In this document: one piece after another, positions 15,131 to 50,915 of the stretch
How positions within the stretch are numbered: the first letter of the stretch is position 1
Layout of the letters: every line of letters begins with the position of its first letter
Assembly (NCBI GenBank): GCA_965222605.1
Contig: OZ244960.1
Location: 4,864,001 to 4,928,000 of the forward strand
Length of the DNA stretch: 64,000 nucleotides
Source of the DNA: Candidatus Latescibacterota bacterium
Lineage (GTDB): Bacteria > Latescibacterota > UBA2968
Reading direction: 5' to 3'
Translations under genes and position numbers: made by a program
The notes under the pieces: model-generated
What the model saw: the letters and a program-made list of their open reading frames with translations, nothing else
Database searches by the model: none
Told to the model about the DNA's origin: nothing

Positions 15131-15139
15131 GGTGAACAG

Positions 15140-16585: not shown

Positions 16586-16606
16586 TCTGAGATGAGGGAT
16601 GATTTT

Positions 16607-17536
16607 ATGAGACGTATTTTTTGCATCCTGATTGTATTTGCATGGGTTGGCATGGCCAAAGCAGAGGTGCAGGTCGCGTTTCGCTTTGAGGCTGTTTTTG
16701 GCGAAATAGGAGGCGGCGATGGGCAGTTTCTCGATCCCGAGGGATTGACTCTGGATACGTCGGGCAATGTGTTTGTGGTGGATACCGGGAATGATCGCGT
16801 CCAAAAATTGTCTCCAACTGGCACCTTTTTGAGGGCAGTGGGGGGACCGGGCTGGGAAGATGGGCAATTTAATAAACCGGGTGGTATTGCCGCGAGCAAG
16901 GGGTTGGAGATTTATGTGGCTGATGGCCGAAATCGCCGCATTCAGGTGTTTAATCTCAATTTGCGTCTCCTATCTGTGATTGGTGGGGCGGATGCTGGTG
17001 GTTCTATGGATCTGGGTACGCTCAGTGGTATTGCCGTGTCGGATGCAGATGAGATTTTGGTGAGCGATATCGATGCCGATCAACTGGTGCAGATCGATAC
17101 GTATAGCCGCCTTGATCGCAGTTTTGGCGGATTTGGGTATGGGGCTGGCAATTTGCGGCGACCTTTGGGGATCGCAATAGAGGGGCGTGAGGTGGTTTAT
17201 GTTTGTGATAGTGAGAATGATAGGATCGCGGTGTTCGACAGGTTTGGCAATTTTAAAAAGACAATGGGTAAAGATATTTTATTGCAGCCCTCGGCGCTGT
17301 GCGTGGGGCCTGAGCGGACGTTGATCGTAGCGGATACAGGCCACCATCGCATTGTGGTGTTTGATCTCGATTCAGGCGGTGTTGCAGGCTCTTTAGGCGG
17401 TCCCGATCCGGGAAAGGGAGCGATGGCATTTCAGTTTCCTCGGGGTGTCGCGCTTGGACGCGCTGGCAGGTTGTTCGTCCTGGATTCGGGCAATGGGCGC
17501 ATTCAGAAGTTGCAATTGCAAGTTTCAAGGCGGTGA
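16607..17536 (+). CDS. Secreted NHL-repeat beta-propeller protein
   Basis: Signal peptide; repeated F..P.G....G.VYV.D.GN.RIQ units. Confidence 0.88.
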   Translation: MRRIFCILIVFAWVGMAKAEVQVAFRFEAVFGEIGGGDGQFLDPEGLTLDTSGNVFVVDTGNDRVQKLSPTGTFLRAVGGPGWEDGQFNKPGGIAASKGLEIYVADGRNRRIQVFNLNLRLLSVIGGADAGGSMDLGTLSGIAVSDADEILVSDIDADQLVQIDTYSRLDRSFGGFGYGAGNLRRPLGIAIEGREVVYVCDSENDRIAVFDRFGNFKKTMGKDILLQPSALCVGPERTLIVADTGHHRIVVFDLDSGGVAGSLGGPDPGKGAMAFQFPRGVALGRAGRLFVLDSGNGRIQKLQLQVSRR

Positions 17537-17583
17537 GTTGGAGGGTAAGAAGTCCGCCCAACTATCCATTAAAACAACAGGCC

Positions 17584-17619
17584 GGGATGTTCCGCGGGGC
17601 GGGATGTCCTATTTTTTTT
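17584..17619 (+). terminator. Intrinsic terminator
   Basis: GGGATGTTCCGC-GGG-GCGGGATGTCCC followed by a T-tract. Confidence 0.55.
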
Positions 17620-17637
17620 AGACGCAAGGGGTGAAAG

Positions 17638-20600: not shown

Positions 20601-20667
20601 TGGTCGCGTAAGGCCGGCTCGTCAGACCATACATCTCGGACGCGTGGAGATGCGGGCGGTGTTTTGA
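17638..20667 (+). CDS. Large outer-membrane beta-barrel-like hypothetical protein
   Basis: Signal peptide; SERVYLNG...DY.VDY..G motifs; amphipathic beta strands; C-terminal EMRAVF. Start may be ATG 17659. Confidence 0.75.
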   Translation: MRRDTREMSFSTLCIAQGIVHFLLCVVTAHAQVPVPEQFTLFDGERVFQADGSRGPFAISDRAIEVGSERVWVDGVLFIRDRDYVVDADRALLTLLRDVARGVEIVVRFRQRPLVAAPVVQRRQFQPGEAGGDQPIVRVFAPPVVRDRDEEQKLTIGGHKSISLTAGSQHAVHQALQLRISGEVAEGVNLLAVLSDRNLPIGEGGGSKRLQELDRVFFQVNANQVSATLGDLDVAFDGTVFGRYRRQLQGARVLAHRDRGQVAAFGAVSRGRWETRRLVTVEGFQGPYSLSGGGLRGQIVPESERVYLNGRLLKRGDGADYTVDYERGHVAFTPEIPIGVESRVIVEYQVIDAGMRSRLMGIESRVSLAEGVSVGTTLIRESDRPELSPGITSVHRQLGVVYATYTPWSNARISGEFALSDRDMGSGRGFRMDGAWKARNFEVTGRFRQVGANFEAFERLDRGRAAGRWGWQADTARTAQREGEMAVRWDLGKAFFVTGEYGQHLGAVLTDRKSVGIHSPVGMYRYESLGRGSGGMRRHEGQVEVSVGGVVPGFRFSLENGVGDGVGSSSLFYATRPRVLPQGIDKQELVWHMGVGEGRNWSWVSELKYRKFRQRETVWQDSLRGWLHTHRAQMTNWKGWIFSGSYTHGEIQIGREHQQTTHLGRVRLGHNRPGSSHQITYRVSSTRVSQPIFVEVASGLGEYIWKDANGDGLRDVEEFVPDVDGNYVRVYDYGQFAPARDGALGMRVEIDFRRLIGDEHILSVVALDASLRAERQIAVGTKHAAPWDLFGFDEDAGILGARRDGLVRLYLFRYHRRGSLRLTARVRDQVNRALYGGAAEVFVQGGALGKLRPVNRLELETEFDLGHRAREGAGAFAYRIDGASGALRCAFRSAHKWYLRLGVLSGRDWERIRALRVWHIGVQPEVIYALPGRGRLRGRLDWTRVWATDITPLFLGLARGNRQGQNWAWRLGMDYRFGKYVSARVMYDGRVRPARQTIHLGRVEMRAVF

Positions 20668-20718
20668 TAAGTGTGAAGTTTGAAGTGAGAAGGATGAAGG
20701 AGAAAGAAAAAATCAAGT

Positions 20719-20748
20719 GTAGGGGCGGTGCCCCTGTGCCCGCCCGTC
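20719..20748 (+). repeat. REP-like GTAG palindrome
   Basis: GTAGGGGCGGTGCCCCTGTGCCCGCCCGTC; related to the element at 59311-59340 (minus strand). Confidence 0.6.
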
Positions 20749-20765
20749 GTCGTGCAAAGGTGCAG

Positions 20766-22427
20766 ATGAATACAGATGCGTACATAAAAGTGTGGCGATG
20801 CTTGCTTCTTGCGTTGTGGATGATCTGTGTCGTGTCCAACGCAGGGGGAGAGGTGCGTGCGATTGTGAAGCGCGTGCAGGTTGAAGGTGCGCGGTCTGTA
20901 AGTGCGCGCGATGTGCGGGGGTGGTTGGTTACGCGGGCGGGTGTTGCGGTGGATTCGGCGTTGTTGCGAAAGGATGTTCACCGCATTTTGAAGGGGTATC
21001 AGGCGCGTGGATTCTGGCATGTGTCGGTGGCTTTTCCCAGGGTTGCTATACGTGGGGACGACGCTGCGGTGGCTTTTGCAATTGTTGAAGGGGCGCGGAC
21101 GCGGGTCGCGTCTGTGGAGATAAAGGGTGATCTGGTCTTTGATCCATCGGAGGCTTTTGGCCTGGCGCGGGGTATGGTGTTGATCGAAAGCGATTTGGAC
21201 CAGCGGTTGGATCACCTGTTGCGTTTTTATGAAGACCGGGGCTATCCGTTTTGCGCGTTGCGTCCAGATGTGCGATTTGATAGTGATGGCGCGCGCGTGC
21301 AGGTGGTGGTGTCACCTGGTCCTCTGGTGCATGTCGATGTGGTGCGCTTTGAGGGCAATCAAACGACGCGGGAAGATGTTTTGTTGCGGCATATTTCGTT
21401 TGTTGTGGGGGAAGTTTATGACCAGCGGCGCGTGGATGCTTTTGTGAGGCAGTTGCAAAATTTGCCGTTTATTGACCGGGTTTATACGCCTGAACTCGTA
21501 TCTACCGGTGATGAGATGGCGCTTGTGATCGGTGTGGAGGAGTCGCGCCACACGCGTATTGAAGGGGTGTTCGGTGTGGGTTCCGGGCAGGGTTTGACCG
21601 GGGAGATCGCGCTCGATGTTTTGAATTTTTCCGGTGGGGGGCGAGAGGGTTACGCGCTGTGGTCGCGGCGGGGGGTGGGTTTGTCGAATTTGCGGGTTTC
21701 GTATCGCGAGCCTTATGTGTTAAATAGTCCGCTTTCCGGTTGGGGTGAAGTGGAAATGGTTGCGCGCACGGGGTACGTGACGCACAAGTTTGGGGGAGGT
21801 GCTGATGTTTCTGTGGGGGAGGGCACGCGATTTTTTGGCGGTGTTGTACACAGGCGCGTTTTGCCCGATTCCTCGGGGTTGGGATTTTTCGAGGCCGAGA
21901 GGATGTGGTCTCTCGAGTCAGGTGTTCGGTTTGGTCGGCGAGAGGGTGCTATGAGCGGCTGGCAGGCGGAGATCAGGGGAGAGGTTGGCGAGGTTTCAGA
22001 TGGGATCAGGCGCGTGCAGTGGGGTGTTGATGGGCAGGTGTTTTTGCCTGTGGGCAAGCAGTCTGTTATTGCGGGACGGGCGCGCGCTTTTTGGGTGGGG
22101 CAGAAGGGGGATGTGCCGCAGACTGCCGGTATCTGGCTGGGGGGGGCGCAATCGCTGCGGGGCTATCGGGAAGAGATGTTTTGGGGAACGAATGCGGGGT
22201 GGGTCAATGTGGAATGGCGGTGGTTGTTGGATCCGAAGGCGCGGCTTTTTGCATTTGTCGATGCGGGAAGGATTGAGGGGGCAGGGACGCGTTCATGGCC
22301 CGTGTCCTATGGCGTGGGGCTTTTGGCAAATGGACGGATGGGCGCGGTTGGGATAGATTATGGATTGCCACGGGGTGAGAGCCTGGGGCAGGGCATGGTG
22401 CATGTGCGGATGATCAGCGCGTTTTAG
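20766..22427 (+). CDS. Omp85/BamA-TamA family protein with POTRA domains
   Basis: POTRA motifs (Y...GF, FYEDRGYPF, FEGN.TT...LLR); LGG..SLRGY; C-terminal F. Confidence 0.85.
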   Translation: MNTDAYIKVWRCLLLALWMICVVSNAGGEVRAIVKRVQVEGARSVSARDVRGWLVTRAGVAVDSALLRKDVHRILKGYQARGFWHVSVAFPRVAIRGDDAAVAFAIVEGARTRVASVEIKGDLVFDPSEAFGLARGMVLIESDLDQRLDHLLRFYEDRGYPFCALRPDVRFDSDGARVQVVVSPGPLVHVDVVRFEGNQTTREDVLLRHISFVVGEVYDQRRVDAFVRQLQNLPFIDRVYTPELVSTGDEMALVIGVEESRHTRIEGVFGVGSGQGLTGEIALDVLNFSGGGREGYALWSRRGVGLSNLRVSYREPYVLNSPLSGWGEVEMVARTGYVTHKFGGGADVSVGEGTRFFGGVVHRRVLPDSSGLGFFEAERMWSLESGVRFGRREGAMSGWQAEIRGEVGEVSDGIRRVQWGVDGQVFLPVGKQSVIAGRARAFWVGQKGDVPQTAGIWLGGAQSLRGYREEMFWGTNAGWVNVEWRWLLDPKARLFAFVDAGRIEGAGTRSWPVSYGVGLLANGRMGAVGIDYGLPRGESLGQGMVHVRMISAF

Positions 22428-22505
22428 TTTGTGTGACACCTGCGCGCGGAGTATATTCTGAGGCGCAAAAATTCGTATGCAATTATCATTCACGAGGAGA
22501 GTTTT

Positions 22506-23975
22506 ATGTTGAGCAGGATTCGCAGTGTGATGCTGGTCGTTCTCGCCGCGGGTTTCATGTGGGGCTGTGGTGGCGAGCGCGGGATGGAGTCTTCCGAGGT
22601 GGAGGAGCAGATTGGACGCCCGCTGAGCAAAATAGCTGTAGCGGATGGGAGTGTGTCTCAGGCGATGGTGGTAGCGACTATGTCGCAAGATGACGCGCCT
22701 GTAGCGGGTGTAATGGTCGAGTTTGCGCGTTCTATTGCCGGGGAGGCACCCGATTATCAGTGGTCGGAGCTGACGGATGAGATGGGGCGCGTCACGGTGG
22801 AGATATCCGGTCAGGCGAGTGGTTATTATCAGGCGCGCGCGTCTTGGGATGGCTCTGTGATGGGGCGTTGGTCGAGTATCCCGATCAATGGGGGCTATAC
22901 GTCGATGGTTGCGTTGCCCATTGGTGGGAAGGCGCGGGTGACGGGTACATCTGAACTCATATCAGTTGGCATTGTCGTGTCTAAAACAGGACGGTTATCC
23001 GCGATTGGACAGAGGTTTATCAATGGCTTTGAAATGGCTCGCGAAGAGGTGAACTCACAACTGGGCAATGCGAGTTTGAGGTTTATTGTCGAGGATGACC
23101 AGAGCACAATAGAAGGTGCTAAGGCAGCGTACAATAAACTCATTCAAGATGGCGTGCCAGCCATTCTCGGTGTTTATACTTCTACCATGGTGCGCGCGGT
23201 ATTTCCCATTGCGCAGGAAAATGAGATTGTGGCGATTAGTCCTACCTCGGCCGCACGCGGCCTCAGCGCGATTGGCGATTTTGTTTTTCGCGTTAGCCTT
23301 ACCGTTGATGCGTTGATCCCGGGCAGTGTAAAACTGACTCGAGAAAAATTGGGCTATGAGCGCGTGGTCACGATGTTTGATCGCATTGATGTTTTTTCGC
23401 CAAGCAGCGACGCGGTGTTGAAGCAGGCCTTTAGTGAGAATGGGGTCGAGGTTTTGGCCTCGGAGACTTTTGAAACCGGCGAGACGGATTTTTCCGAGCA
23501 ATTTTCTCGGCTTGTGGCGCTGAATCCAGATGCTATTTTTGTTTCAGCTTTGCCAGCAGAGAGGGTCGTGGCTCTGACTGAGGGGCAGCAGTACGGCATT
23601 CCAATTCTGATTCCTCTGCTCACCCTGAGTGAGGTAGAACGCGCTGGGGAGGCTGCTGAAGGGGCAATTAGTTTTACGTCGTGGAGCAGCACGGCCGATA
23701 TACCTGACAACCGCGCCTTTGTTGAGAATTATAGGGCGAAATACGGTGCCGAGCCGAGCCGATACGCGGCCATGTCCTACGCGACGGTTCATATTTTGGC
23801 AAAAGCTATTGCAGATGCCCAGTCCTCCGATCCGCGTGCGATTCGGGACGCGCTGGCTCAAATCGAGAATTTGGATACGATTTTGGGCTCGTTTTCATTT
23901 GACGCCAATGGAGATGCGATTTACGATCCGGCGGTTCTGATTGTTAAGGATGGTAAATTTGAGGTTTTTGAGTGA
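22506..23975 (+). CDS. Lipoprotein: Ig-like N-terminal module + branched-chain amino acid ABC substrate-binding domain
   Basis: Lipobox (MWGC); LivJ-like domain from ISVGIVVSKTG; EDDQST; GDFVFR; G.FSFD.NGD. Confidence 0.85.
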   Translation: MLSRIRSVMLVVLAAGFMWGCGGERGMESSEVEEQIGRPLSKIAVADGSVSQAMVVATMSQDDAPVAGVMVEFARSIAGEAPDYQWSELTDEMGRVTVEISGQASGYYQARASWDGSVMGRWSSIPINGGYTSMVALPIGGKARVTGTSELISVGIVVSKTGRLSAIGQRFINGFEMAREEVNSQLGNASLRFIVEDDQSTIEGAKAAYNKLIQDGVPAILGVYTSTMVRAVFPIAQENEIVAISPTSAARGLSAIGDFVFRVSLTVDALIPGSVKLTREKLGYERVVTMFDRIDVFSPSSDAVLKQAFSENGVEVLASETFETGETDFSEQFSRLVALNPDAIFVSALPAERVVALTEGQQYGIPILIPLLTLSEVERAGEAAEGAISFTSWSSTADIPDNRAFVENYRAKYGAEPSRYAAMSYATVHILAKAIADAQSSDPRAIRDALAQIENLDTILGSFSFDANGDAIYDPAVLIVKDGKFEVFE

Positions 23976-40312: not shown

Positions 40313-40529
40313 TGATGGAGGATGGAGCACTACTGCGCCAGCAGTTCATTAACAAAACGAACAAAGCCGGACAGAGTTATTTTTTTACTTTTTAGAATTG
40401 CAATGGAACAAAATGTACACCTTTCCTGTAGATAGTTAGCGAGCGTGGGTCTGCTAACGCCAATTATATATCCTTGTTTTATCGTGCCTTAGAATATTCT
40501 GAGGCACTTTTTTTTGGTTTTTTTCAAAA

Positions 40530-40546: not shown

Positions 40547-40620
40547 AGATATGCTGTGTGCAAATCGCGTGAATGGGATTGAGGCGGACGAGATGTCCGC
40601 GATGCCAGAGGGTTGAAGTT

Positions 40621-41895
40621 TTGAAAAATACTACAGTTGCGTTTTATAGCCAGCATCTCATTGGCGTTGGGCACCATTTTCGCAATCGACAGATTGTCAA
40701 TGCGTTGGTTAAGACTTGCGATGTGTTTTTCATCGATGGCGGGCGCCCGATTCCCGAGGCCGATCTCGATGAACGGGTGACGCGTATTTCCCTACCGCCT
40801 CTTCGCACGGGCGCACAGGGCATTGAGTCTGTTGATAAGGAGCGCGATTTGCAGGCTGTGATGTGCGAACGTCAGGTCAGGCTTTCCGAAGCGATGGAAC
40901 AGATTCGACCGGATGTGTTTTGTGTTGAATTTTTTCCTTTTTCCCGGTGGTCGCTCAAGGGCGAAATCCTCAATACCATTGTCAGGCTCAATCAGGTCAA
41001 TCCCGACGCGAAGGTGCTGTGTTCACTGCGCGATGTTCCCACGCGGGCAAAAAGCGATGAGTTGCAACCGGCTATTGCGCCTACAGAACGGCGCGATGGG
41101 GATGCGATGCGGTTTTATTCGGTGCCTTTTGGCGGGATACATCACGAGTATTTGTCTTTTAATCGGCGGTATTACGAGGAGGTTGTGCCCGTGTTGAATC
41201 AGTATTTCGATGCGGTGCTGGTGCATGGCGATTCCCAACTATCGCGGTTGGAAGATCACTTTCCATGGGTTGCTGATATCGGGATTCCCGTGGTTTATAC
41301 GGGATTTGTTTCTGAGAAACTCGAGGATGTCTCTCGGCCTGACAGTGCGTCCGATCAGTATGTTTTGGTCAGTGCTGGCGGTGGTGCTGAGGGGCTTGCG
41401 CTTGTCGCGCCGTGTATTGAAGCGTGGAAAAAATTGGAACAGGACGATGTGCACGATGGACGCGAGATGGTGATTTTTGCAGGTGCGTTTATCGATGAAA
41501 CGCATTTTGACGCTTTGCGCGAGTTGTGCGGCGATGGTCCGTTTCGTATTGAACGCTTTACGTCCAATTTTTTGGCCTGGATGAAATACACAGATTTGTC
41601 GATTAGCCGCGCGGGCTACAATACCTGTATGAATGTACTTGAGACGCAAGTTCCAACGATTTTGGTGCCGAGTATTGCGATGGATGATCAGGAGTTTCGC
41701 GCACAGAAGTTGATGGCGTTGGGCCTCGCACGGGTGATACATCCCGACCACTTATCCGTGGCAAAGATGGCAAAATCCATTGCCGAAATGCTCGAAAGTT
41801 CTGTGCCTGAACACCATCTATCCCTGGGTGGTGCCGAGCAAACGCGAAAGTTTATAGAATTAGCGGTACAAGGTAAAAAACGAGGTGAAAGATGA
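40621..41895 (+). CDS. GT-B glycosyltransferase, COG4671/GT28 C-terminal-like
   Basis: FYSQHL.G.GH..R; VE.FPF.R; SLRD; VLVHGD; VSAGGG..G; SISRAGYNT; DQ..RA. TTG start assumed. Confidence 0.85.
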   Translation: MKNTTVAFYSQHLIGVGHHFRNRQIVNALVKTCDVFFIDGGRPIPEADLDERVTRISLPPLRTGAQGIESVDKERDLQAVMCERQVRLSEAMEQIRPDVFCVEFFPFSRWSLKGEILNTIVRLNQVNPDAKVLCSLRDVPTRAKSDELQPAIAPTERRDGDAMRFYSVPFGGIHHEYLSFNRRYYEEVVPVLNQYFDAVLVHGDSQLSRLEDHFPWVADIGIPVVYTGFVSEKLEDVSRPDSASDQYVLVSAGGGAEGLALVAPCIEAWKKLEQDDVHDGREMVIFAGAFIDETHFDALRELCGDGPFRIERFTSNFLAWMKYTDLSISRAGYNTCMNVLETQVPTILVPSIAMDDQEFRAQKLMALGLARVIHPDHLSVAKMAKSIAEMLESSVPEHHLSLGGAEQTRKFIELAVQGKKRGER

Positions 41896-43295
41896 AAATT
41901 TATGTGTCACATCCGTATCACGACCGCGAGAAAGTGATAGAGTCGAATATCGGGGCATCCCTTTCGGGTTTTAACCATGTGCAGGCGTTATCGCAGTATT
42001 GCGATGTGTATATGCCAGCGTCTGAAGCGGTGGATTATGGTCCGAATTTGCACGGTACTCGGGTTGCATTTGAGACGATTGATTCGTCTCGACAATGGTT
42101 TGAGCGGCAGGGATATGACGGTGTGCTGATGTTTGAACCCAAGGTAGATGACATAGCGTTTTTCCGCCATGTGTGTTCCGCGCCCATTGTGATTCGGCTG
42201 TCGTGCTCTTTTGGACACAATCGCGATTTTATAGACAAGGTGCTGAATTGTTATTCGCTGTTGCGGCCTTATGATGCCCTGTCACCCAAGTCGGCATATG
42301 TCGCTGACGAAATCGGCAAGCTGGTGTTTGACCGATCGTATTTGCAGGCGATTACCAATGGAGTAGATGCCGAGGTGTTCAAGCCGATGGATAAGTTACA
42401 GGCGCGAAAAGATGTCGCGGATAAGACGGGTGATCAACGCTTTTTGGAGATGCCAGTGGTGGGTTTTTGCGGGCGGTTTGAACCGAGCAAGGGCGCGTAT
42501 CCATTTTTGCGAATGGCCGATCTGAATCCCAATATGTTGTTTGCGGTGATTGGCAAGCAGTTCGCACCCGTGACCCATCCGCCCAATGTGATCTTTTTGG
42601 GTGCGCAACCCTATACGCAGATGCCGCTGTATTACAATATACTCGATGTGTTGTGCGCGCTGTCGGTGTATTCGTATGAGTCGTGTCCTTCAACTGTGCT
42701 GGAGGGGATGGCGTGTGGCCTTCCGGTTGTGGCGACAAATTTTGCGGGCGCGCCAGAGTTGTTGGGCAGTTGTGGGCGGTTGATTGAGATTGAGCGGTTT
42801 GAAGATGAGCCATTGAATGTGACGGGTTATATCGCCCCTGAGGTGATTTCAGATGCTGTGCGCGATTTGTTGAATAGCAAAACGGAGCGCTTGGAAATGG
42901 GAGAAGGTGCTCGCAAACGTTCGCTCGAATTTTCCTGGGATCATACGGCGCAGCAGCACATGGCATTGTTTGAAGATCTGCTGGCCAAACGCGATGCACC
43001 CGCCTGCCCGATTCCAATAACCGTGAATTTTACACAGAGTTGTGATGCGTCTGGTAACCCGAAAAGTGTGTCCAAAGGATTTAACTATCTGGGCAGCAGA
43101 CAAGGTCCTTTCCCACGCATCTCGTTTTTTGGGCAGGATATGTCCCTTATTGAGGGCCTGGGTCTTCATTTGATGCAACATTTACACCCAAACGAAGTCG
43201 AAGCCGCTCTGTTGGGCTTATGCGAGACGCGCGCTACAGCCTACAAAACGCTTCGCAAAATCCGACACTTCAGCGATATGCTCACGGCTCCCTGA
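41892..43295 (+). CDS. GT4-family glycosyltransferase with ~90-aa C-terminal extension
   Basis: ITNGVD...F.P; GRFEPSKG; S..YESCPSTVLEGMACGLPVVAT (EX7E); FSWD; ATGA overlap with the upstream GT. Confidence 0.9.
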   Translation: MKIYVSHPYHDREKVIESNIGASLSGFNHVQALSQYCDVYMPASEAVDYGPNLHGTRVAFETIDSSRQWFERQGYDGVLMFEPKVDDIAFFRHVCSAPIVIRLSCSFGHNRDFIDKVLNCYSLLRPYDALSPKSAYVADEIGKLVFDRSYLQAITNGVDAEVFKPMDKLQARKDVADKTGDQRFLEMPVVGFCGRFEPSKGAYPFLRMADLNPNMLFAVIGKQFAPVTHPPNVIFLGAQPYTQMPLYYNILDVLCALSVYSYESCPSTVLEGMACGLPVVATNFAGAPELLGSCGRLIEIERFEDEPLNVTGYIAPEVISDAVRDLLNSKTERLEMGEGARKRSLEFSWDHTAQQHMALFEDLLAKRDAPACPIPITVNFTQSCDASGNPKSVSKGFNYLGSRQGPFPRISFFGQDMSLIEGLGLHLMQHLHPNEVEAALLGLCETRATAYKTLRKIRHFSDMLTAP

Positions 43296-43347
43296 TCGGC
43301 AAAGGGAGACAGCTTGCGCTGAGGTAGTGAAGAAAGGAGGTGAAAAA

Positions 43348-43566
43348 ATGACTGAGCGCATTACGTCGATGCCAGCACAAGTTTCTGTGACCTGTGTTCA
43401 ACTTCCCGGTCGAGAAATCGAACTGGCGCGTGGTGAGATGGCGAATACATCAGGAGGGTGCATTTTACCAGGAGAAGACATGTTTGAGCATGACCCACTT
43501 GAGCCTCTTGAAGATATTATTGATGATATCTGCGATACGGTGAGTGAATGGTGGGCTTCCTGGTAG
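43348..43566 (+). CDS. Putative RiPP precursor 1 (double-glycine leader, 35-aa acidic core)
   Basis: Strong RBS AAGGAGGTG; ...ELARGEMANTSGG|CILPGEDMFEHDPLEPLEDIIDDICDTVSEWWASW; upstream of a C39 transporter. Confidence 0.8.
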   Translation: MTERITSMPAQVSVTCVQLPGREIELARGEMANTSGGCILPGEDMFEHDPLEPLEDIIDDICDTVSEWWASW

Positions 43567-43677
43567 CAATCGCGCCACGATCCATAAAACGCTATTTCTG
43601 GTATTTAAGTACTGGATGAAAACTATCTTTTTTTAGTACTTGACGAGTCTTACCATTTATTACTTTTGGAGGATATC

Positions 43678-44073
43678 ATGTCCGCTATTGTATTAAATAA
43701 TCGCGTAACTTCAGATTCAGACGCTGCTTTTGCCTCTTGCACGGCACTGCCCATCCATCAAACAACGCTCAATGCTGAAGAAATGGCGGGTATTGATGGT
43801 TTGGGGAGTTGGGGCGATGCTATTGATAAGGTTGGAGATTATGTTTCGGATGTTGTTGATTCAGTAGGAGATTATGTTTCGGATGCTGCTACTACTGCTT
43901 CGATAGCTATTTTCGGTGGGGCTGTTTATGCAGACTTAGATCCTGATCCATTTGGTTTCCCATCACCACCTGATACACTGATTATTATCACTCGGGAACC
44001 ACATGTGTGCAACGGCCCGATTGTGTACACATCTTATGGGTCTTGTTTGTGTCCGATGCCAGGCCGCCCGTAG
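43678..44073 (+). CDS. Putative RiPP precursor 2 (GG-type leader variant, repeated core)
   Basis: RBS GGAGGA; leader ...CTALPIHQTTLNAEEMAGIDG aligns without gaps to precursor 1; core has VGDYVSD twice and a Pro/Cys-rich tail. Confidence 0.75.
   Translation: MSAIVLNNRVTSDSDAAFASCTALPIHQTTLNAEEMAGIDGLGSWGDAIDKVGDYVSDVVDSVGDYVSDAATTASIAIFGGAVYADLDPDPFGFPSPPDTLIIITREPHVCNGPIVYTSYGSCLCPMPGRP
43831..43885 (+). repeat. 33-bp intragenic duplication in precursor 2
   Basis: GTxGGAGATTATGTTTCGGATG at 43831 and 43864. Confidence 0.9.
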
Positions 44074-44231
44074 GTTCGCTGTGCATCAACCCGTCATTCC
44101 CGCACACGCGCACAATGTAGTCACACGTAGAAAAATGCCATTAATCTCGCAGCCCTTTTTGGAGTTGCCTGAGGCAAATGCCTACGGCGTGTGCAGGAGT
44201 GACGGCAATCTATATGAGGCATGATAAAAAA

Positions 44232-47200
44232 ATGAATCTTTCGGTTTTTTTCGCAAAAAACTCAGTTCGGTCACAACCCGCTCGTTATTCCTTTGGAGGT
44301 ATTGTTTGTCAACGGGGACAAGCGGGTGAGGCGTTTTACATTGTGCAATCTGGACGGTTGCGGGTGATCAAACAAGATGCGAATGGCAATTCGGCCACTG
44401 TGGGCTATTTGTATGCGGGCGATCATTTTGGCGAAGGGGCATTGTTGAACCGGCAGGGACATCGGGCGACGGTGCGGGCGGTTGAGGATGCGGATGTGTT
44501 GCAGGTGCCGAAGGATGAATTTTTTAAGGCTGTGAGAAAACATTCTGACCTGAAAGCCTATCTTAAGGAGCAGGTCGCCTGTATTGCGTATCGGGATTTT
44601 ACGCGATTTTTGAAAGGAGATGTTCCGAGCGAGGCGATGCGGGTGTTGTTCGCACGGTTGAAGCGCGAGGCGGTTGAGAAGGGTGTGACGGTTGTTGATC
44701 GCGGTCAGTTAGGACAGCGATTTTATTTGATTGGCAGCGGTCAGTTGGAGGCTGTGTCAGAAAATGGGGACACGGTGATTTTGAGCCAGGGTGATTATTT
44801 TGGAGATGAGAATTTATCAGGTGATAAAAGGGTGATTCGCAGTCGGTGTGATAGTGTGCTCTTTTATATAGATAAAAGCGATTTTAATAAATTAAAAGCT
44901 ATGATGCCGGGATTCGAGAAGGCGTTGGAGAGAGGCCGCATATTGCGTGGAGATCAGGCATCGAATGGGGCATTGTTGCGACAAGTGCGACAAGTACCTG
45001 AGCCACTTACTGCGCGATCTGATGAAAAACTGGCATCCAATACAACATCCAATGTGGTCAATATCAGAATAGACGGCGCAAAACCGCTTGTACCCACATT
45101 GTTGCGTTTTCCGTTTTTGAAGCAACACGATCAATCGGATTGTGGCGCGGCGTGTTTGGGCATGATTTGTAAGTATTACAAGATGCCGATTGGGTTGAAC
45201 AGGCTACGCGATATGTCCAATGTGTCGCGGTATGGCACGTCGGTGGCGGCATTGGCCGAGGCTGCGGAAACACTGGGTTTTGTCACGCGCGGCGTGCGCA
45301 CGGGGTATGAAGCCCTGATGCGAACAGACCTGCCAGCCATTCTCCACTGGGAAGGCAACCACTTTGTGGTTTTGTATCAGATTACAAAAAAGGAGGTGAA
45401 GATAGCAGATCCCGGCGTGGGTATTCGCAAGCTGTCGCGGGCAGAGTTCGAGAAGGGCTGGACAAATATGGCGCTGTTGTTGGAATACACAGATCAGGTG
45501 GCAGAGAACGAACCGTCTCGGTCTTCTTTTAAGCGGTTTTTCCCATTGATCAGACCCTATACAGGCATATTGATTGAGGTGCTATTAGCGTCTTTGGTGC
45601 TCAGTTTGTTTGGCCTGGCGTCGCCCATTTTTATGCAGACCATTGTCGATCAGGTGCTGGTGCATCACGACGCGGATTTGTTGAACTTGATGCTGGTGGG
45701 CATGATTGTTGTCGCGTTGTTCCAAATGGGTACATCGACGTTGCGCGTCTATTTAATCGGGTATGTGAGTGCGCGGTTGAGCATTGCGATGTTATCGCGT
45801 TTTTATCGGCATTTGCTGGCGCTGTCCATGCGGTTTTTTGCCCTGCGGCGCACGGGCGATTTGACCACGCGGTTTAGGGAGAATGCGACGATTCAGCGTT
45901 TGTTGACGGGTACGACGGTTTCTGCGATTCTGGATTTTATCATGCTTTTTGTCTATCTGGGTCTGATGTTTTATTACAATGCTGAACTGACGCTGATCAT
46001 GCTGATTTTTGTGCCGCTCTCTGTGGGTCTCACGCTGATTTACACGCCCATTTTGAAGTCTTTCAGCCAGCGCGCTTTTTTGGCGCGTGCCGAACAATCA
46101 TCGGTTTTAATCGATTCGCTGCACGGCATTGATGTGGTCAAAGCCGAGGCTGTGGAGCGCGCGACGCGGTGGCATTGGGAAGGTAAGTTCACAAAGGAAA
46201 TTCAGATTGGATTTCAGCGGTTAAAAATGCAGATGTTGTTTGGGGGGATCGGAAGAGTGTTCAATTTGTTGAGCAGTACGGTGATTTTGTGGTATGGTGC
46301 CTCATTAGTGATTGCGGGTGACCTGTCGGTGGGGCAGTTGATGGCGTTTAACGCGCTGATTGGCAATGTGATGGGACCGATTATGGGGTTGATTGGGATA
46401 TGGCCTCAGGTGCAAGAAGCGCGTATTGCATTGGATCGGCTGAATGATGTGTATGACACGCAGATGGAAGATGCGCGGCAACAGGGTCAGGGTTTGATCT
46501 TAAAGCATTTGGAAGGTCGGGTGGTGTTTGATGAGGTGTTTTTTAGATATGGTGTCGGTTCTGATGAACCTTATGTGTTGAATAACATAGACCTGATTCT
46601 CGAACCGGGTCAAAAAGTTGCGATTGTGGGACGCAGTGGCGCGGGCAAGACCACATTGGTAAAGCTGGTACCCCGTTTGTTTGATCCGTCAGAAGGGCGG
46701 GTGATGCTGGATGGTATGGATGTGCGAGACCTGGATCCCCATTGGTTGCGGCGGCAGGTGGGTATGGTGATGCAAGAGCCGTTTTTGTTTTCTGGCACGA
46801 TTGCAGAAAATATCGCCATTGGTCGAAAAGATGCCGACATGGATCGCATTTTGGAAGTGGCAAAACTATCGTGTGTACACGATTTTGTAAGCGATATGCC
46901 TTTGGGATATGAGACAAAGGTCGGTGAGCAGGGTGTAGGACTATCTGGTGGACAGCGACAGCGGATTGCAATTGCGCGGGCACTGTATTGCGATCCCAAA
47001 ATTTTGATTTTTGATGAGGCCACCAATGCGCTGGATACGGATTCAGAACAGGCGATGCAGGCGAATTTAGATATGTTTTTGGATGATCGCACGGCGTTGA
47101 TTATTGCCCATCGGTTGAGTACGGTGCGCGATGCGGATGCGATTGTGGTGCTGGATAAGGGTCATATTGTGGAGATGGGCACGCACGATGAGTTGATGGT

Positions 47201-47252
47201 GCAACAGGGTTTGTATTATCACCTGTGCAGTCAACAGTTGCAGGTGGTGTAA
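44232..47252 (+). CDS. Peptidase-containing ABC transporter (2 x cNMP-binding + C39 + TMD + NBD)
   Basis: Two cNMP domains (FYIVQSG...GDHFGEGAL; FYLIGSG...GDYFGD); QHDQSDCGAACL, HWEGNHFVV, IADP (intact C-H-D); GRSGAGKTT, LSGGQRQR, FDEAT. Start uncertain (44178 or 44232). Confidence 0.95.
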   Translation: MNLSVFFAKNSVRSQPARYSFGGIVCQRGQAGEAFYIVQSGRLRVIKQDANGNSATVGYLYAGDHFGEGALLNRQGHRATVRAVEDADVLQVPKDEFFKAVRKHSDLKAYLKEQVACIAYRDFTRFLKGDVPSEAMRVLFARLKREAVEKGVTVVDRGQLGQRFYLIGSGQLEAVSENGDTVILSQGDYFGDENLSGDKRVIRSRCDSVLFYIDKSDFNKLKAMMPGFEKALERGRILRGDQASNGALLRQVRQVPEPLTARSDEKLASNTTSNVVNIRIDGAKPLVPTLLRFPFLKQHDQSDCGAACLGMICKYYKMPIGLNRLRDMSNVSRYGTSVAALAEAAETLGFVTRGVRTGYEALMRTDLPAILHWEGNHFVVLYQITKKEVKIADPGVGIRKLSRAEFEKGWTNMALLLEYTDQVAENEPSRSSFKRFFPLIRPYTGILIEVLLASLVLSLFGLASPIFMQTIVDQVLVHHDADLLNLMLVGMIVVALFQMGTSTLRVYLIGYVSARLSIAMLSRFYRHLLALSMRFFALRRTGDLTTRFRENATIQRLLTGTTVSAILDFIMLFVYLGLMFYYNAELTLIMLIFVPLSVGLTLIYTPILKSFSQRAFLARAEQSSVLIDSLHGIDVVKAEAVERATRWHWEGKFTKEIQIGFQRLKMQMLFGGIGRVFNLLSSTVILWYGASLVIAGDLSVGQLMAFNALIGNVMGPIMGLIGIWPQVQEARIALDRLNDVYDTQMEDARQQGQGLILKHLEGRVVFDEVFFRYGVGSDEPYVLNNIDLILEPGQKVAIVGRSGAGKTTLVKLVPRLFDPSEGRVMLDGMDVRDLDPHWLRRQVGMVMQEPFLFSGTIAENIAIGRKDADMDRILEVAKLSCVHDFVSDMPLGYETKVGEQGVGLSGGQRQRIAIARALYCDPKILIFDEATNALDTDSEQAMQANLDMFLDDRTALIIAHRLSTVRDADAIVVLDKGHIVEMGTHDELMVQQGLYYHLCSQQLQVV

Positions 47253-48635
47253 ATGGCAGAATCGCTTTTGGAGACATCGGCTGAGACAGTAGTTCCCGGT
47301 ATAGTTCAGGAGCAAGATGACGCGGCAGAAGAGGTGCATGCGTTTATGGGGTCTTTGCGGCCCTTTTGGGGACGTGCAATGCTCTATATTGTCCTGCTGT
47401 TTGTGATCATTGCCATTACCTGGGCATGGTGGGGTGAGGTGGATATGGTGACATCAGCCCCTTTTCGACTGGTGCCTCTGGGGCAGGTGAAGACGATGCA
47501 GGCACAGCGAGGTGGTGAAATTGAGTTGATTGGTGTTAAAGAAGGGGATCATATTGAGAAAGGGCAGGTGTTATTTAAGCTCAAATCGTGGGAGACCTGG
47601 GGAGATTTGCGGGAATGGGAACAGGCAAAGATGGCTTTTCAGAAGGCGGAGTACGATCTCAAAAGGGTGTTGCCTCAAAGGGCAAAATTAAATCGAGAGA
47701 CGATAGGCGCGCTGGAACAACGCCTTTCTGTTTTGCAGCGGTTTATGGTGGCACACCAGAATGCGTTGAAAGATTATCAAAGCGATGTAGGCGATGTTGT
47801 GGGATCGAAAACCAAAGTATCTGACGCGGGATTGCAAGCGCAGATCGGTTTTCGGCAAGCTGAGATTGACCTTATGAAACAGGAATTTTTACAGCAAAAG
47901 GCGTTGTTTGAGCGCGAATTGATCAGCCGGACAGATATGAATCGCGCGCGTGTGCAGTATTTGAGTGCTCTGTCCGCACTTCCGTCGCGTATGTCAGAGA
48001 TATACAAGAATGAAATGGCGGTGCAGGATCTCAAGCGTCAAATTCTGGAAGCGCGTATTGCACACGAGCGCGAGGCATCGCAGATGCAACACGCTTATGA
48101 GATCGTACAATTGCGATTGGAACAGGCTCGCAAACGCATTGATCGTACCCTGGAAGCCGAGTCAGATCTGATTCTGGCACCTGAATCGGGCATTGTAACA
48201 CAGGTGATGGTGAATGCGATAGGACAGGTGATCAGCAAGGGGGCGCCTCTAATTACACTGGCACCGGCTTTGGCACCGATGGTTGCGGAACTGATGGTGT
48301 TGAATAAAGATGTGGGCTTGCTCAAACCCGGGCAATTGGTCAAACTGAAATACGGCGCTTATGCCTTTCAGGATTTTGGCATCAAACGCGGGTGGCTCAA
48401 ATACATCTCGCCCGATGCGATGATTGATAAAAGTATTGGACCGATATTTAAGTGTGTTGTCGAGTTGGAAGAAAATACCATGCATGTGCAAGGATACGAC
48501 AAACCGCTGATGTTCGGGATGAAGGGTACGGCAGAGATTATGACAGATCGCCAATCAGTCTTACTGATGTTGCTGAGTCCCTTGCGACAGCTTTACGAGT
48601 CGGCAAGGTACGATGTTCAAGAGGGTGCGTTGTGA
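47253..48635 (+). CDS. HlyD-family membrane fusion protein
   Basis: N-terminal TM segment, VKEGD..EKG..L, coiled coil, APESG.V, DVG....GQ.VKLK..AY.FQ.FG, GM.G.AEI. Confidence 0.93.
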   Translation: MAESLLETSAETVVPGIVQEQDDAAEEVHAFMGSLRPFWGRAMLYIVLLFVIIAITWAWWGEVDMVTSAPFRLVPLGQVKTMQAQRGGEIELIGVKEGDHIEKGQVLFKLKSWETWGDLREWEQAKMAFQKAEYDLKRVLPQRAKLNRETIGALEQRLSVLQRFMVAHQNALKDYQSDVGDVVGSKTKVSDAGLQAQIGFRQAEIDLMKQEFLQQKALFERELISRTDMNRARVQYLSALSALPSRMSEIYKNEMAVQDLKRQILEARIAHEREASQMQHAYEIVQLRLEQARKRIDRTLEAESDLILAPESGIVTQVMVNAIGQVISKGAPLITLAPALAPMVAELMVLNKDVGLLKPGQLVKLKYGAYAFQDFGIKRGWLKYISPDAMIDKSIGPIFKCVVELEENTMHVQGYDKPLMFGMKGTAEIMTDRQSVLLMLLSPLRQLYESARYDVQEGAL

Positions 48636-49411
48636 TGTCAGAGGATGCCACACTGATTCGGGTCAATGGTATTGCAGTGTCATTGCGCCATGTCGTGCGG
48701 CAACTGGGCGTTGCTGGTAATCTGCGTTTTTTTGATGGATTTACGCGCAGGGAATTGGTCCGACAACTCGCGCTGCGCGAGGGTGTTTGCGCAACGCGTG
48801 AAGATATTCAGCGCAAGGTAGATGAATGGCGGTATCAACACCGTTTGGAGCGGGTGGAAGATACAGAGGCATGGCTTGTAAAGCGGAGTATTACGCTTCA
48901 GGATGTGACAGAAGATGCCGAGGTGAGGCAGTTGGAATATTTGCTGTCTGAGAAGATTGCCGAGGGACAGGTTGAACCCTATTTCGTGCAACACATGCTG
49001 GAGTTTGACGAGGCGGAGATTTGCTGGATTTTTCACGCGGATAAGGGTGTGATCGACGAGATTGATTTGCAGATCCGAGAAGATAGTGCAGATTTTTACG
49101 CGATGGCGCGTCGATTTTCTCAAGATGCACGCACGCGATCAGGTAGTGGTTTTTTAGGCAGGGTGCGGCGCAAGCAGTTGCCCAAGGGGATTGCTGCGCG
49201 CGTTTTTGCCGCTTCCTCAGGTGAAATTTTTGGTCCGGAAAAAGTGTCGGGCGGGTTTGCGCTGTACCTGGTGCAGCAACTCTATCCGGCAACACTGGAC
49301 GAGCGGATTGCAAAGGAGATCCGCAAACACCTGTTTAATCAGTGGTTGCAACGAGAGATGCAGCGAGCAGATATACGGTATCCGATTTGGCAGATGGAAA
49401 TAACAAAATAA
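48635..49411 (+). CDS. Parvulin/PpiC-like (rotamase-fold) maturation protein
   Basis: F...ARRFS.D......GG/SG-FLG...R..LP....A.VF....G...GP; TGATG coupling to hlyD. Such proteins commonly accompany cNMP-C39 transporters. Confidence 0.85.
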   Translation: MSEDATLIRVNGIAVSLRHVVRQLGVAGNLRFFDGFTRRELVRQLALREGVCATREDIQRKVDEWRYQHRLERVEDTEAWLVKRSITLQDVTEDAEVRQLEYLLSEKIAEGQVEPYFVQHMLEFDEAEICWIFHADKGVIDEIDLQIREDSADFYAMARRFSQDARTRSGSGFLGRVRRKQLPKGIAARVFAASSGEIFGPEKVSGGFALYLVQQLYPATLDERIAKEIRKHLFNQWLQREMQRADIRYPIWQMEITK

Positions 49412-49453: not shown

Positions 49454-50305
49454 CTATGGCATTACGGCTTTTTCGCCCTGATATTTGCTGATCCAGCTTT
49501 TCAAAGGAACATCTCCTTCTTTTGGCGATGTGTAGCCGTGAATGCCCGAAGGAGAATGCCGGCACATTTGCTTTCGGATTGGACTCAGTTGATCCCAGAA
49601 ATTTTCCACGTTGCATTCGCCGCGCGCTTGAAGCCAGCGGTAAGCGTATCCGTAGAAGATCACCTTGCGGGGTTGCGTCCAATAATTTGCACTCGCTGAA
49701 TGCCACAACCGACGGTCAAAAATAACGGCTGAACCCCGGGGAGCGAGGACGGGTATAGAGCCCTTTACCATCTGATTGCGATTTCCGTTCGGCCACTTCA
49801 TCGTATTTTTTAACTGGCTTCCCGGAATGATGTGAAAATTGCCGCGTTCCGGTTCGCTTGTATCCGATAGAAAGTAAGCTACTTTGACCGATAAGCGCGG
49901 CCTCGGGCTTGTCTCCATTTCCTGATTCACGCGCCCGGTATCTTGATGCCAACTGAGTCCCAAACCGCGTTTGCTATCTGGTGGTTCGGGAGGCGTTACG
50001 TCCATGTGTGCCAGATAGATTTGTATATTCCATCCCAAGATCCCCCAAACTTTTGGGAATGTCGTATAGTGATCTATCAAGTCAATAAATGCACGATCTC
50101 GCCCCATAAAGTCGATTTCGTGAACCCGCTTATGTGGGTCAATTTTTTGTTTTTCGCGTTCCTCGGCATTGATGCGATCAACTGCTTTGGTCAGTTGTCT
50201 TCTTTTCGCATCGCTCAGTGCGTTTTCAATGATTAGATAACCCCGGTCCTCAAATTCGAGGCGTTCGTCTTCAGTCAGGCAATGGTTTAGCCAGCGTTTG
50301 TTCAT
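49454..50305 (-). CDS. Phytanoyl-CoA dioxygenase (PhyH)-family Fe/2OG enzyme
   Basis: F...GYL.IEN; WHQD; IPGS; G.AVIFD.RLWH. Confidence 0.9.
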   Translation of the reverse strand: MNKRWLNHCLTEDERLEFEDRGYLIIENALSDAKRRQLTKAVDRINAEEREKQKIDPHKRVHEIDFMGRDRAFIDLIDHYTTFPKVWGILGWNIQIYLAHMDVTPPEPPDSKRGLGLSWHQDTGRVNQEMETSPRPRLSVKVAYFLSDTSEPERGNFHIIPGSQLKNTMKWPNGNRNQMVKGSIPVLAPRGSAVIFDRRLWHSASANYWTQPRKVIFYGYAYRWLQARGECNVENFWDQLSPIRKQMCRHSPSGIHGYTSPKEGDVPLKSWISKYQGEKAVMP

Positions 50306-50318
50306 AGCGCATCTCCTT

Positions 50319-50786
50319 TCATGAAAAGAGGTTGGCCTTCTTTTTTCGTCGATCCAGAATATAGAATTTGATAAGCCCTATCCCGCCGATCAGACTACAG
50401 GGTATCACAATGAAGCGGTACATTGAGACTTCGTCATATCGAAGCGATGCACCGGTCGCGCCTATTGTCACGACCACAAATGATATGTGAATGAGTTTTT
50501 GAGATAGGTATTTATTGACAAAGGTAGAGATTAGAATCAACGCGAGCGCCGTGTGGAAAATGACAAATCCCGCATAACCGTTTCGCACGGCGAGATCAAA
50601 ATGCCAATCATAGCGATAAAGCCATACCATGAGCACATGTGTCAGAATGATCAGCGCGACAGCACGCCACAGCGCGATCGGGTGTTGTTCTCGCAGCGTG
50701 AGCACAACCACAGTGGTCAATCCCACATATCCTGTGATCGCCAATAAAAAAGTGATGAAAATTTCCGTTGTTCCCGTTCCAACCAT
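50319..50786 (-). CDS. Hypothetical membrane protein
   Basis: About 5 hydrophobic segments; start uncertain. Confidence 0.7.
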   Translation of the reverse strand: MVGTGTTEIFITFLLAITGYVGLTTVVVLTLREQHPIALWRAVALIILTHVLMVWLYRYDWHFDLAVRNGYAGFVIFHTALALILISTFVNKYLSQKLIHISFVVVTIGATGASLRYDEVSMYRFIVIPCSLIGGIGLIKFYILDRRKKKANLFS

Positions 50787-50915
50787 CGACAGATTCTCCC
50801 TTCTCATAGCTCTGTGTCGCGTTTGATATGCAATATATCGCATGATATTCTAAGAACAAGAGCGTTTCACAGGTGCTGACATGTCTCTATTTGGTGTAGG
50901 CGATTCATTACATGC

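Follow-up and report, generated by a model that had tools for sequence, protein, structure and literature searches.

Gene row and precursor pair

The DNA analysed here is a stretch of 64,000 nucleotides (nt) from a Candidatus Latescibacterota bacterium, referred to below as the window; coordinates are counted from window position 1. Seven genes in a row on the plus strand encode, in this order, a GT28-like glycosyltransferase (GT), a GT4 glycosyltransferase, two small precursors (P1 and P2), an exporter with cyclic nucleotide monophosphate (cNMP)-binding, C39 peptidase and ATP-binding cassette (ABC) domains, an HlyD adaptor and a PpiC-like protein. P1 and P2 appear to be exported precursors with a candidate acceptor serine in a portable acidic motif, which the GT pair would glycosylate before export by the peptide cleavage/export ABC transporter (PCAT). 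We regard this reading as moderately probable, and all of the support for glycosylation is comparative. The features of the locus are listed below (aa, amino acids; ORF, open reading frame; PPIase, peptidyl-prolyl isomerase).

40484..40507, +, hairpin resembling a terminator, located between guaA and the cluster (10-bp stem followed by a T run)
40573..41895, +, GT-B glycosyltransferase, GT28_C/MGT(GT1)-like, 440 aa (Pfam PF04101, E 1.3e-13)
41892..43295, +, GT4-family glycosyltransferase, 467 aa (Pfam PF00534, E 2.4e-18)
43348..43566, +, precursor P1, 72 aa (ORF calling, ribosome-binding site, 80 homologues)
43678..44073, +, precursor P2, 131 aa, ATG at 43678 (ORF calling, ribosome-binding site, 50 homologues)
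43816..43881, +, 33-nt tandem duplication that doubles the serine motif inside P2 (two copies, 82% identity, spacing 33)
44178..47252, +, PCAT, 1024 aa (PF03412 with E 2.8e-40, PF00664, PF00005 and two copies of PF00027)
47253..48635, +, HlyD-family periplasmic adaptor, 460 aa (Pfam HlyD_3/HlyD_D23)
48635..49411, +, PpiC-type PPIase-like protein, 258 aa, ATG at 48635 (Pfam Rotamase, E 5.4e-12)

A guaA-like ORF ends at 40312, and the hairpin between it and the gene row marks the likely start of an operon. The stop of the GT28-like gene and the start of the GT4 gene overlap by 4 nt. The ATG codons of P1 and P2 are preceded at 6-7 nt by strong Shine-Dalgarno sites (AGGAGG and GGAGG); for P2 a longer frame begins with TTG at 43666. 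The exporter carries two N-terminal cNMP-binding domains ahead of its C39 peptidase domain (at about 45108-45488), which suggests regulation by a cyclic nucleotide. The HlyD adaptor scores 203.1 bits against TIGR01843, below the cut-off of 208.65. No signal peptide is evident in the PpiC-like protein.

P1 consists of a leader of 37 aa that ends in G-G (43348-43458) and a core of 35 aa that starts with Cys (43459-43563). The core contains 11 Asp or Glu, no Lys or Arg, two Cys and a Trp-rich end, as had been described in an earlier reading of the same DNA (the original prediction). The leader of P2 is 42 aa long and ends in G-L (43678-43803), and three Cys lie in the C-terminal part of the protein. 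Direct reading of the translations also bore out two further observations of the original prediction. Leader stretches of 22 residues align gaplessly and give the pattern C-x2-L-P-x5-L-x3-E-M-A-x3-G, and P1 has one copy and P2 two copies of the 12-residue motif D-x-[IV]-D-x-[IV]-x-D-x-V-S-[DE]. The pentamer [DE]-x-[VIA]-S-[DE] occupies aa 63-67 of P1 (43534-43548, Ser66) and aa 54-58 and 65-69 of P2 (43837-43851, Ser57; 43870-43884, Ser68). The two P2 copies arise from the tandem repeat 43816-43848 and 43849-43881. A period of 11 residues had been proposed for both precursors; it holds for P2 only, as the acidic tract of P1 orthologues varies through indels of about 4-7 residues.

The two precursors had been taken as dissimilar. 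BLASTP aligns P1 with P2 at E 9e-5, and hhalign matches the orthologue families (31 sequences for P1, 24 for P2) over 65 columns with a probability of 94.6% and E 7e-8; this alignment keeps the leaders matched position by position and pairs the P1 motif with the second copy in P2. Because the profile-profile match places the resemblance beyond chance, P1 and P2 are, as judged by sequence, paralogous precursors and remote homologues, not dissimilar peptides made alike by convergence. It could be argued that the motifs are chance or leftover similarity in non-coding DNA or spurious small ORFs, since neither P1 nor P2 matches any Pfam or NCBIfam model. The 80 and 50 conserved homologues, the profile-profile match and a slot between GT4 and exporter that is kept in many genomes refute this, and the strong ribosome-binding sites also speak against it, so that the probability of this explanation is negligible.

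The motif is conserved in orthologues. In P1, S66 and E67 are invariant, W68, W69 and C38 are conserved to at least 90%, and the second core Cys is not conserved. In P2 the leader is nearly invariant, and D54, S57, G64 and D65 are conserved to at least 90%. The double motif is conserved in P2 orthologues, which fits the proposal that duplication multiplies the sites; the duplication itself is old, not recent. The further proposal of an amphipathic acidic helix is weakly supported: the AlphaFold2 (AF2) model of P2 is of low confidence (mean pLDDT 46.8), with helices only at residues 49-59 and 67-79.

A scan for further precursors was productive in the relatives, and 132 distinct cores were collected; the genome of the window itself holds no paralogues besides P1 and P2. 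The P2-type leader also heads at least three other core types. One natural chimera, P0115, joins the N-terminal half of a P2-type leader to a P1-type leader end and core, which suggests recombination inside the leader. Two of the protein clusters that contain P1 and P2 homologues are labelled Gemmatimonadetes by another source. Contigs from a metatranscriptome library of one relative, 85-95% alike, cover 43140-43478, i.e., the end of GT4 and the P1 leader; contigs of an RNA library do not prove transcription. Contigs of the same library also cover a P2-type leader (43667-43803), and at both places the contigs then run into different cores.

Leader family and export module

An alignment of 41 leaders harvested from relatives is almost gapless over 37 positions. 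L19 (in the L-P box) and G36 (position -2) are invariant, L26 (position -12) is conserved to at least 90%, and the consensus end is E-M-A-x-x-S-G-G. The C-terminal half thus has Leu at -12, Glu or Gln at -8, Met or Ile at -7 and the invariant Gly at -2, and Gly is the second-last leader residue in all 132 distinct precursors. Double-glycine leaders have the consensus Leu -12, Glu -8, Leu or Met -7 and a hydrophobic residue at -4. At position -4 P1 has Thr and P2 has Ile; at -1, where Gly, Ala or Ser is the rule, P1 ends in G-G and P2 in G-L. A Gly at -2, the upstream hydrophobic and acidic pattern and an adjacent C39 exporter are all found; P1 and P2 match none of the curated models of leaders or bacteriocins (PF10439, Nif11/NHLP). 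By its sequence pattern the leader is an export signal of the double-glycine type that serves the adjacent exporter, HlyD adaptor and PpiC-like protein.

The exporter passes the NCBIfam model TIGR01193 ('peptide cleavage/export ABC transporter') with 533.6 bits against a cut-off of 523.85. Its C39 domain has the Cys, His and Asp motifs (D-C-G, N-H-F and A-D-P, located at aa 321, 394 and 410, respectively), and the peptidase is catalytically complete by sequence. Leader-bearing genes adjoin the ABC-HlyD-PpiC genes in every wide-flank locus that reaches that far, and the PpiC-like gene accompanies ABC-HlyD whether or not a locus has the GT pair. The leader superfamily was detected in 41 of 168 Ca. 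Latescibacterota genomes, all from two families of one order; none of the 115 genomes of the other 12 families of the phylum contains it.

For the comparisons below, the precursor set comprises 136 sequences, of which 132 have distinct cores, and a core is called GT-adjacent if it is located within 6 kb of a GT4 orthologue. The main point of comparison is the genus g6. It has the leaders, the exporter, the HlyD adaptor and the PpiC-like gene, and none of its 15 genomes contains an orthologue of GT4 or of the GT28-like gene. Where the GT pair would be expected, the g6 clusters have Rce1-like CPBP genes and a gene of the DUF3267 type. The leader and the export module therefore work without the GTs. 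Leaders end in G-G in 41/70 GT-adjacent precursors and in 48/50 from g6. The P2-type ending G-L (in P2 at 43798-43806) accounts for 19/70 and 2/50, respectively, and is also seen in L030, L031, L044 and L045. The C-x2-L-P box had been proposed as the recognition element of the modifying enzyme; since it is kept in 30/50 leaders of g6, it is not a GT-specific element.

Sibling precursors with a P2-type leader have glycine-zipper cores and match Pfam Bacteriocin_IIc below threshold from the L-N-x-E-E-M stretch onwards (best E 2.6e-5, 24.5 bits against 27.1).

Glycosyltransferase pair and serine motif

The gene order GT28-like, GT4, P1, P2-type precursors, ABC, HlyD and PpiC-like is kept across the genus. 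GT4 orthologues were found in 24 of the 53 genomes of the order, 36 genes in total. Downstream of 35 of these, a leader-bearing ORF starts within 24-660 nt, with one gene in G008 as the sole exception. The 35 include GT4 paralogues, 50-68% identical, at separate genome sites, where the cores are quite different and rich in Ser, Gly and Thr. One genome has three complete copies of the cluster (L023, L029, L031). The GT28-like gene is located directly upstream of GT4 in the loci of relatives that were examined. In genome G080 (genus g10; L175:10204-11695) GT4 is reduced to its last 78 codons, directly downstream of two transposase-like ORFs, and looks like the product of a disruption by an insertion sequence. 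The absence in g6 and the G080 remnant suggest an ancestral GT pair that disappeared on more than one occasion.

The strict pentamer [DE]-x-[VIA]-S-[DE] is present in 46/70 GT-adjacent cores, whereas shuffled cores averaged 1.9 and did not exceed 9 in 1000 shuffles, a test that overstates the significance because the sequences are related. It is found in 0/50 cores of g6 (shuffled mean 0.2) and in 6/12 of the remaining cores (shuffled mean 0.2). When the middle position is relaxed, 57/70 GT-adjacent cores and 0/50 of g6 have the motif. A Thr version of the motif was seen in 1/70 GT-adjacent cores. The Ser motif occurs in 24 pentamer contexts and, as sorted by eye, in at least nine unrelated core types. 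In five core families the columns can be compared directly between GT-adjacent and g6 members:

F-G-I-D-L-P family: Ser in 6/6 GT-adjacent cores and in 1/14 of g6, the rest having Arg, Lys or Ala
W-Y-x-D-R family: Ser in 4/4 GT-adjacent cores and in 0/6 of g6 (Lys, Arg, Met, Asn)
Poly-Cys family: Ser in 3/3 GT-adjacent cores, Ala in 4/4 of g6
W-D-W glycine-zipper family: Ser segment in GT-adjacent cores, a four-residue segment deleted in 2/2 of g6
P1-type family: Ser/Trp tail in 15/15 GT-adjacent cores and in 0/18 of g6

A Cys at core position +1 is present in 25/70 GT-adjacent cores and a Cys within +1 to +3 in 31/70; both counts are 0/50 in g6. As Ser, at homologous columns too, and Cys at +1 track the presence of the GTs, Ser, and perhaps Cys, fits the role of acceptor of the linked enzymes. 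The proposal that the motif serine is the glycosylation site is supported in this indirect way. In relatives, some precursors terminate in as many as seven consecutive Cys followed by Asp-Asp (L042:11663-11914 on the minus strand, L043:11311-11574 and L043:13174-13413 on the plus strand), and the g6 versions of these poly-Cys precursors end in C-x-C-x-C plus Lys or Arg.

The original prediction had also named the Cys of P1 as an alternative site, and the enrichment at +1 lends this some weight. The GTs might modify the core-first Cys (S-glycosylation, as in glycocins) or Ser/Thr/Gly-rich tracts, and the acidic Ser motif might serve folding or target binding. The Cys counts and the conservation of C38 in P1 orthologues agree with this, as do the long Ser/Thr/Gly-rich tracts of precursors next to the diverged GT4 paralogues and in the genus g8. 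Glycocin enzymes attach GlcNAc to both Ser and Cys, according to PMC12457901. However, P2 and many GT-adjacent cores start with Gly, Trp or Asn and still have the Ser motif, which is also the more widespread of the two GT-linked features (46-57/70 against 25-31/70). As a replacement for the serine, we consider this explanation improbable. It partly overlaps with glycosylation of the serine, because two GTs could use both sites.

The families to which the two GTs belong depend on nucleotide sugars, and neither enzyme has a signal peptide. The GT28-like enzyme scores far below the cut-offs of the NCBIfam murG and MGT models. The copy in the window stands alone (440 aa); in many relatives the enzyme is part of a frame of about 850-880 aa (G017:C1:2809382-2810623, G005:C11:16713-17960; L029 5527-7521, L031 5371-7419), which in L029, L031 and L044 starts with a distant GT4-like domain. 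The GT-B catalytic part of GT4 comprises residues 1-368, followed by a C-terminal extension of residues ~370-467 (42999-43292) that is conserved in orthologues. The AF2 model of GT4 has a mean pLDDT of 89.5. Residues 1-369 match sucrose-phosphate synthase with Z 29.3 and BshA, PimA and GlgM with Z 26-28.5; the protein Ser-O-glycosyltransferases Gtf3 (3rhz), SdgB (7ec1) and GtfA (4pqg) follow with Z 21.1, 19.5 and 19.3.

The extension is modelled as strands 376-384, 390-398 and 415-418, then helices 419-428, 433-443 and 447-465. PqqD-like recognition elements of RiPPs (peptides made on the ribosome and modified after translation) consist of three strands followed by three helices, an order that the extension recalls. 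The whole-model fold searches (Foldseek, VIA) were filled by the GT-B part, and the extension has no sequence match in Pfam, the PDB (profile search) or the ESM Atlas. A stand-alone copy of the extension in G080 was rejected as an independent domain, being the 3' remnant of the GT4 gene mentioned above. Outside the phylum, 43 GT4 representatives were found at E 1e-30 or better; they are ~27-38% identical, and many cover the C-terminal extension. Metagenomes scanned with this enzyme's alignment yielded nothing but generic GT4 relatives, 21-33% identical in the conserved C-domain, and did not resolve neighbours of the subfamily beyond the phylum. The prediction of a complex of the GT28-like enzyme, GT4 and P1 gave a score of 0.02, which is no evidence either way.

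Several further points weigh against glycosylation of the motif serine by the GT pair. The contrast between GT-bearing and GT-lacking genomes rests largely on one split, g1 versus g6. The top structural matches of GT4 are small-molecule and lipid GT4 enzymes (Z 26-29), which outscore the protein glycosyltransferases. Even the loose motif is missing from 13/70 GT-adjacent cores, and the genus g8 has the GT pair and two cores without the Ser motif. One g6 core keeps Ser at the F-G-I-D-L-P column, and in 4/6 W-Y-x-D-R cores of g6 an N-[FY]-V-S-D stretch lies slightly further downstream, by a few residues, so that a V-S-D string exists without the GT pair. In g4 a core reads D-R-I-S-E-G, yet neither GT4 nor GT28 was found in the genome (82% complete) or on its 6.4-kb contig. 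The clusters of g6 are flanked in 5/6 wide loci by GtrA-like genes and genes for TMEM260-like/PMT_2 protein O-mannosyltransferase-like proteins. As a TMEM260-like gene flanks its clusters, g6 may glycosylate by another route and is 'GT-less' only with respect to GT28 and GT4. Cleavage of P2 after G-L, too, is an inference, because the known PCAT sites differ: all characterised PCATs were reported to cut after GG, GA or GS, with one Gly-Lys exception shown in 2025 (PMC12457901). In the case in which the C39 domain does cut at Gly-Leu, P2-type leaders would represent another non-canonical PCAT site.

The GtrA-like and TMEM260-like genes of g6 (L034-L038, e.g. L035:11930-14451) are 1-2 kb from the precursors in divergent orientation, and they were not seen in loci with the GT28/GT4 pair.

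Some of these points would also be explained if the peptides were exported unmodified, like class II bacteriocins or signalling peptides, with GTs that serve an envelope glycan or glycolipid and a Ser that is structural, e.g. a helix cap. In its favour are the GT-free export module of g6, the V-S-D strings in its cores, the motif-free cores of g8, the small-molecule and lipid relatives of GT4 and the helices of the low-confidence P2 model, which overlap the Ser57 and Ser68 copies. This account has to accommodate a GT4 gene that directly precedes a leader-bearing ORF in 35 of 36 cases, old paralogues at other sites included, and a GT pair that travels with precursors and exporter in three cluster copies of one genome. 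It also has to accommodate five core families whose homologous columns have lost Ser in the genus without GT28/GT4, and the near absence of Thr in place of Ser. On this evidence unmodified export is rather unlikely, although it has a better claim than modification of the Cys or of the Ser/Thr/Gly-rich tracts. A broader form of the glycosylation reading would have an acidic Ser sequon and a core-first Cys distributed across the order, in at least nine unrelated cores behind one lineage-specific leader, and read by a dedicated GT-B pair before export. This generalization is plausible and is put forward tentatively.

Proposed pathway, known systems and significance

In the proposed pathway the precursors would be made in the cytoplasm, where two nucleotide-sugar-dependent GT-B enzymes would glycosylate the core before export, as gene linkage and residue covariation indicate. 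The motif serine would be the best candidate acceptor (Ser66 in P1, Ser57 and Ser68 in P2), with the Cys at +1 of P1 as a second candidate, and the duplication in P2 would provide two sites. The PpiC-like protein, a candidate maturation partner or chaperone, may assist maturation, by analogy with MirC. The C39 domain would remove the leader during export, in P1 after G-G and in P2 probably after the unusual G-L, where the conservation boundary lies. The ABC-HlyD machinery would export the peptide.

The enzymes of glycocins are SunS-like GT-A/GT2 proteins, and their cores form disulfide-stapled helix-loop-helix structures. The system described here resembles glycocins (sublancin, glycocin F, thurandacin, pallidocin, thermoglycocin/orniglycocin) in several respects. 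Those are ribosomal peptides whose leader is cut by the C39 domain of a PCAT; a GT encoded beside the precursor attaches sugar to Ser and/or Cys, and non-canonical Gly-X cleavage sites occur (PMC12457901 and PMC6405829). Nested disulfides of glycocins are mentioned in PMC12457901. In contrast, the window encodes two GT-B enzymes, GT4 (PF00534) and GT28/GT1-like (PF04101), and no SunS-like GT-A enzyme was found in the cluster. P1 is acidic, free of Lys and Arg and without the glycocin Cys pattern, having two Cys of which the second is not conserved, so that a stapled core is not indicated. The hosts of glycocins are Firmicutes; here the host is Ca. Latescibacterota, with an acidic Ser pentamer as the candidate site.

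Class II bacteriocins (PF10439) share with the system the double-glycine leader logic, a PCAT/HlyD-type exporter and CPBP/Abi-type immunity; Rce1-like CPBP genes are located in many related clusters. P1 and P2, on the other hand, match no bacteriocin family, and their leader has roughly double the length and a conserved N-terminal half, which contains R-[IV]-x-S and the L-P box. The NHLP/Nif11-type leader families (TIGR03796 exporters) also place one long, highly conserved leader before many unrelated cores; there, too, a cluster has several precursor genes, and the PCAT cleaves at Gly-Gly. The exporter described here reaches 579 bits against TIGR03796, but this is below the cut-off of 853.3, and P1 and P2 match no NCBIfam leader model at E up to 0.1.

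GtfA and GtfB form a pair, which the two adjacent GT-B genes recall. The acceptor of SdgB, GtfA/GtfB and Gtf3 is a Ser beside Asp or in Ser-rich tracts. These GT4 protein O-glycosyltransferases share the GT-B/GT4 fold with the GT4 enzyme of the window. Their substrates are large wall-anchored adhesins, in contrast to the leader-bearing exported peptides considered here, and the closer fold matches of the window's enzyme are small-molecule GT4s.

MirC (TIGR04500) is a PpiC/SurA-like cytoplasmic protein encoded next to a PCAT and an essential partner of the graspetide synthetase in rosaritide biosynthesis, according to PMC13097080. The window likewise encodes a PpiC-like protein together with precursor and PCAT, but this protein scores 92.6 bits against TIGR04500, under the curated cut-off of 180, and the cluster has no ATP-grasp enzyme.

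Bacterial competition is the most likely setting, because bacteriocin-like cores with glycine zippers and genes similar to CPBP immunity genes are present in related clusters. In the 64-kb window no CPBP gene was detected, so that P1 and P2, unlike their glycine-zipper relatives, may not be membrane-active toxins. A possible alternative is a non-antibiotic role of the kind described for the EbfG proteins of Synechococcus elongatus; these are small and secreted, have a GG motif for secretion, are exported by PteB and enable biofilm formation (PMC4997328). The likeness of P1 and P2 to these proteins is one of description, and no GT is known to take part in that system.

Just past the cluster, the minus strand (49454-50843) carries a PhyH-family dioxygenase gene (49454-50305) and another gene (50319-50843) whose 174-aa product is a multi-pass membrane protein that matches no family. 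Both were rejected as cluster members, being on the opposite strand, beside the main locus of the genus only and missing from several loci. Elsewhere in the window, positions 14000-23000 have an unusually high GC skew (about 0.3), a raised G+C content (0.54-0.58) and several long ORFs on the plus strand.

To our knowledge, glycosylated ribosomal peptides are few, and the characterised ones depend on SunS-like enzymes in Firmicutes; Latescibacterota is, as far as we know, a phylum known only from metagenomes. No account of this system was found in the literature searched, which leaves out most subscription journals. From the sequences we read the system as one of glycosylated, PCAT-exported peptides of a variant not previously described. 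If the reading of the acidic pentamer as a sequon is true, the order would hold a natural loss series, in which g6 has lost the GT pair, an insertion sequence has interrupted GT4 in g10 and the Ser has been lost in parallel. Besides the GT-A glycocins, there would then be a second way to make glycosylated ribosomal peptides, independent in its mechanism and with a sequon that could be transplanted. A GT-B system with a short, sequence-defined Ser acceptor would give peptide glyco-engineering a new pair of enzyme and sequon. The Gly-Leu junction would widen the known C39 cleavage sites, and the leaders would form a new family for genome mining in Latescibacterota.

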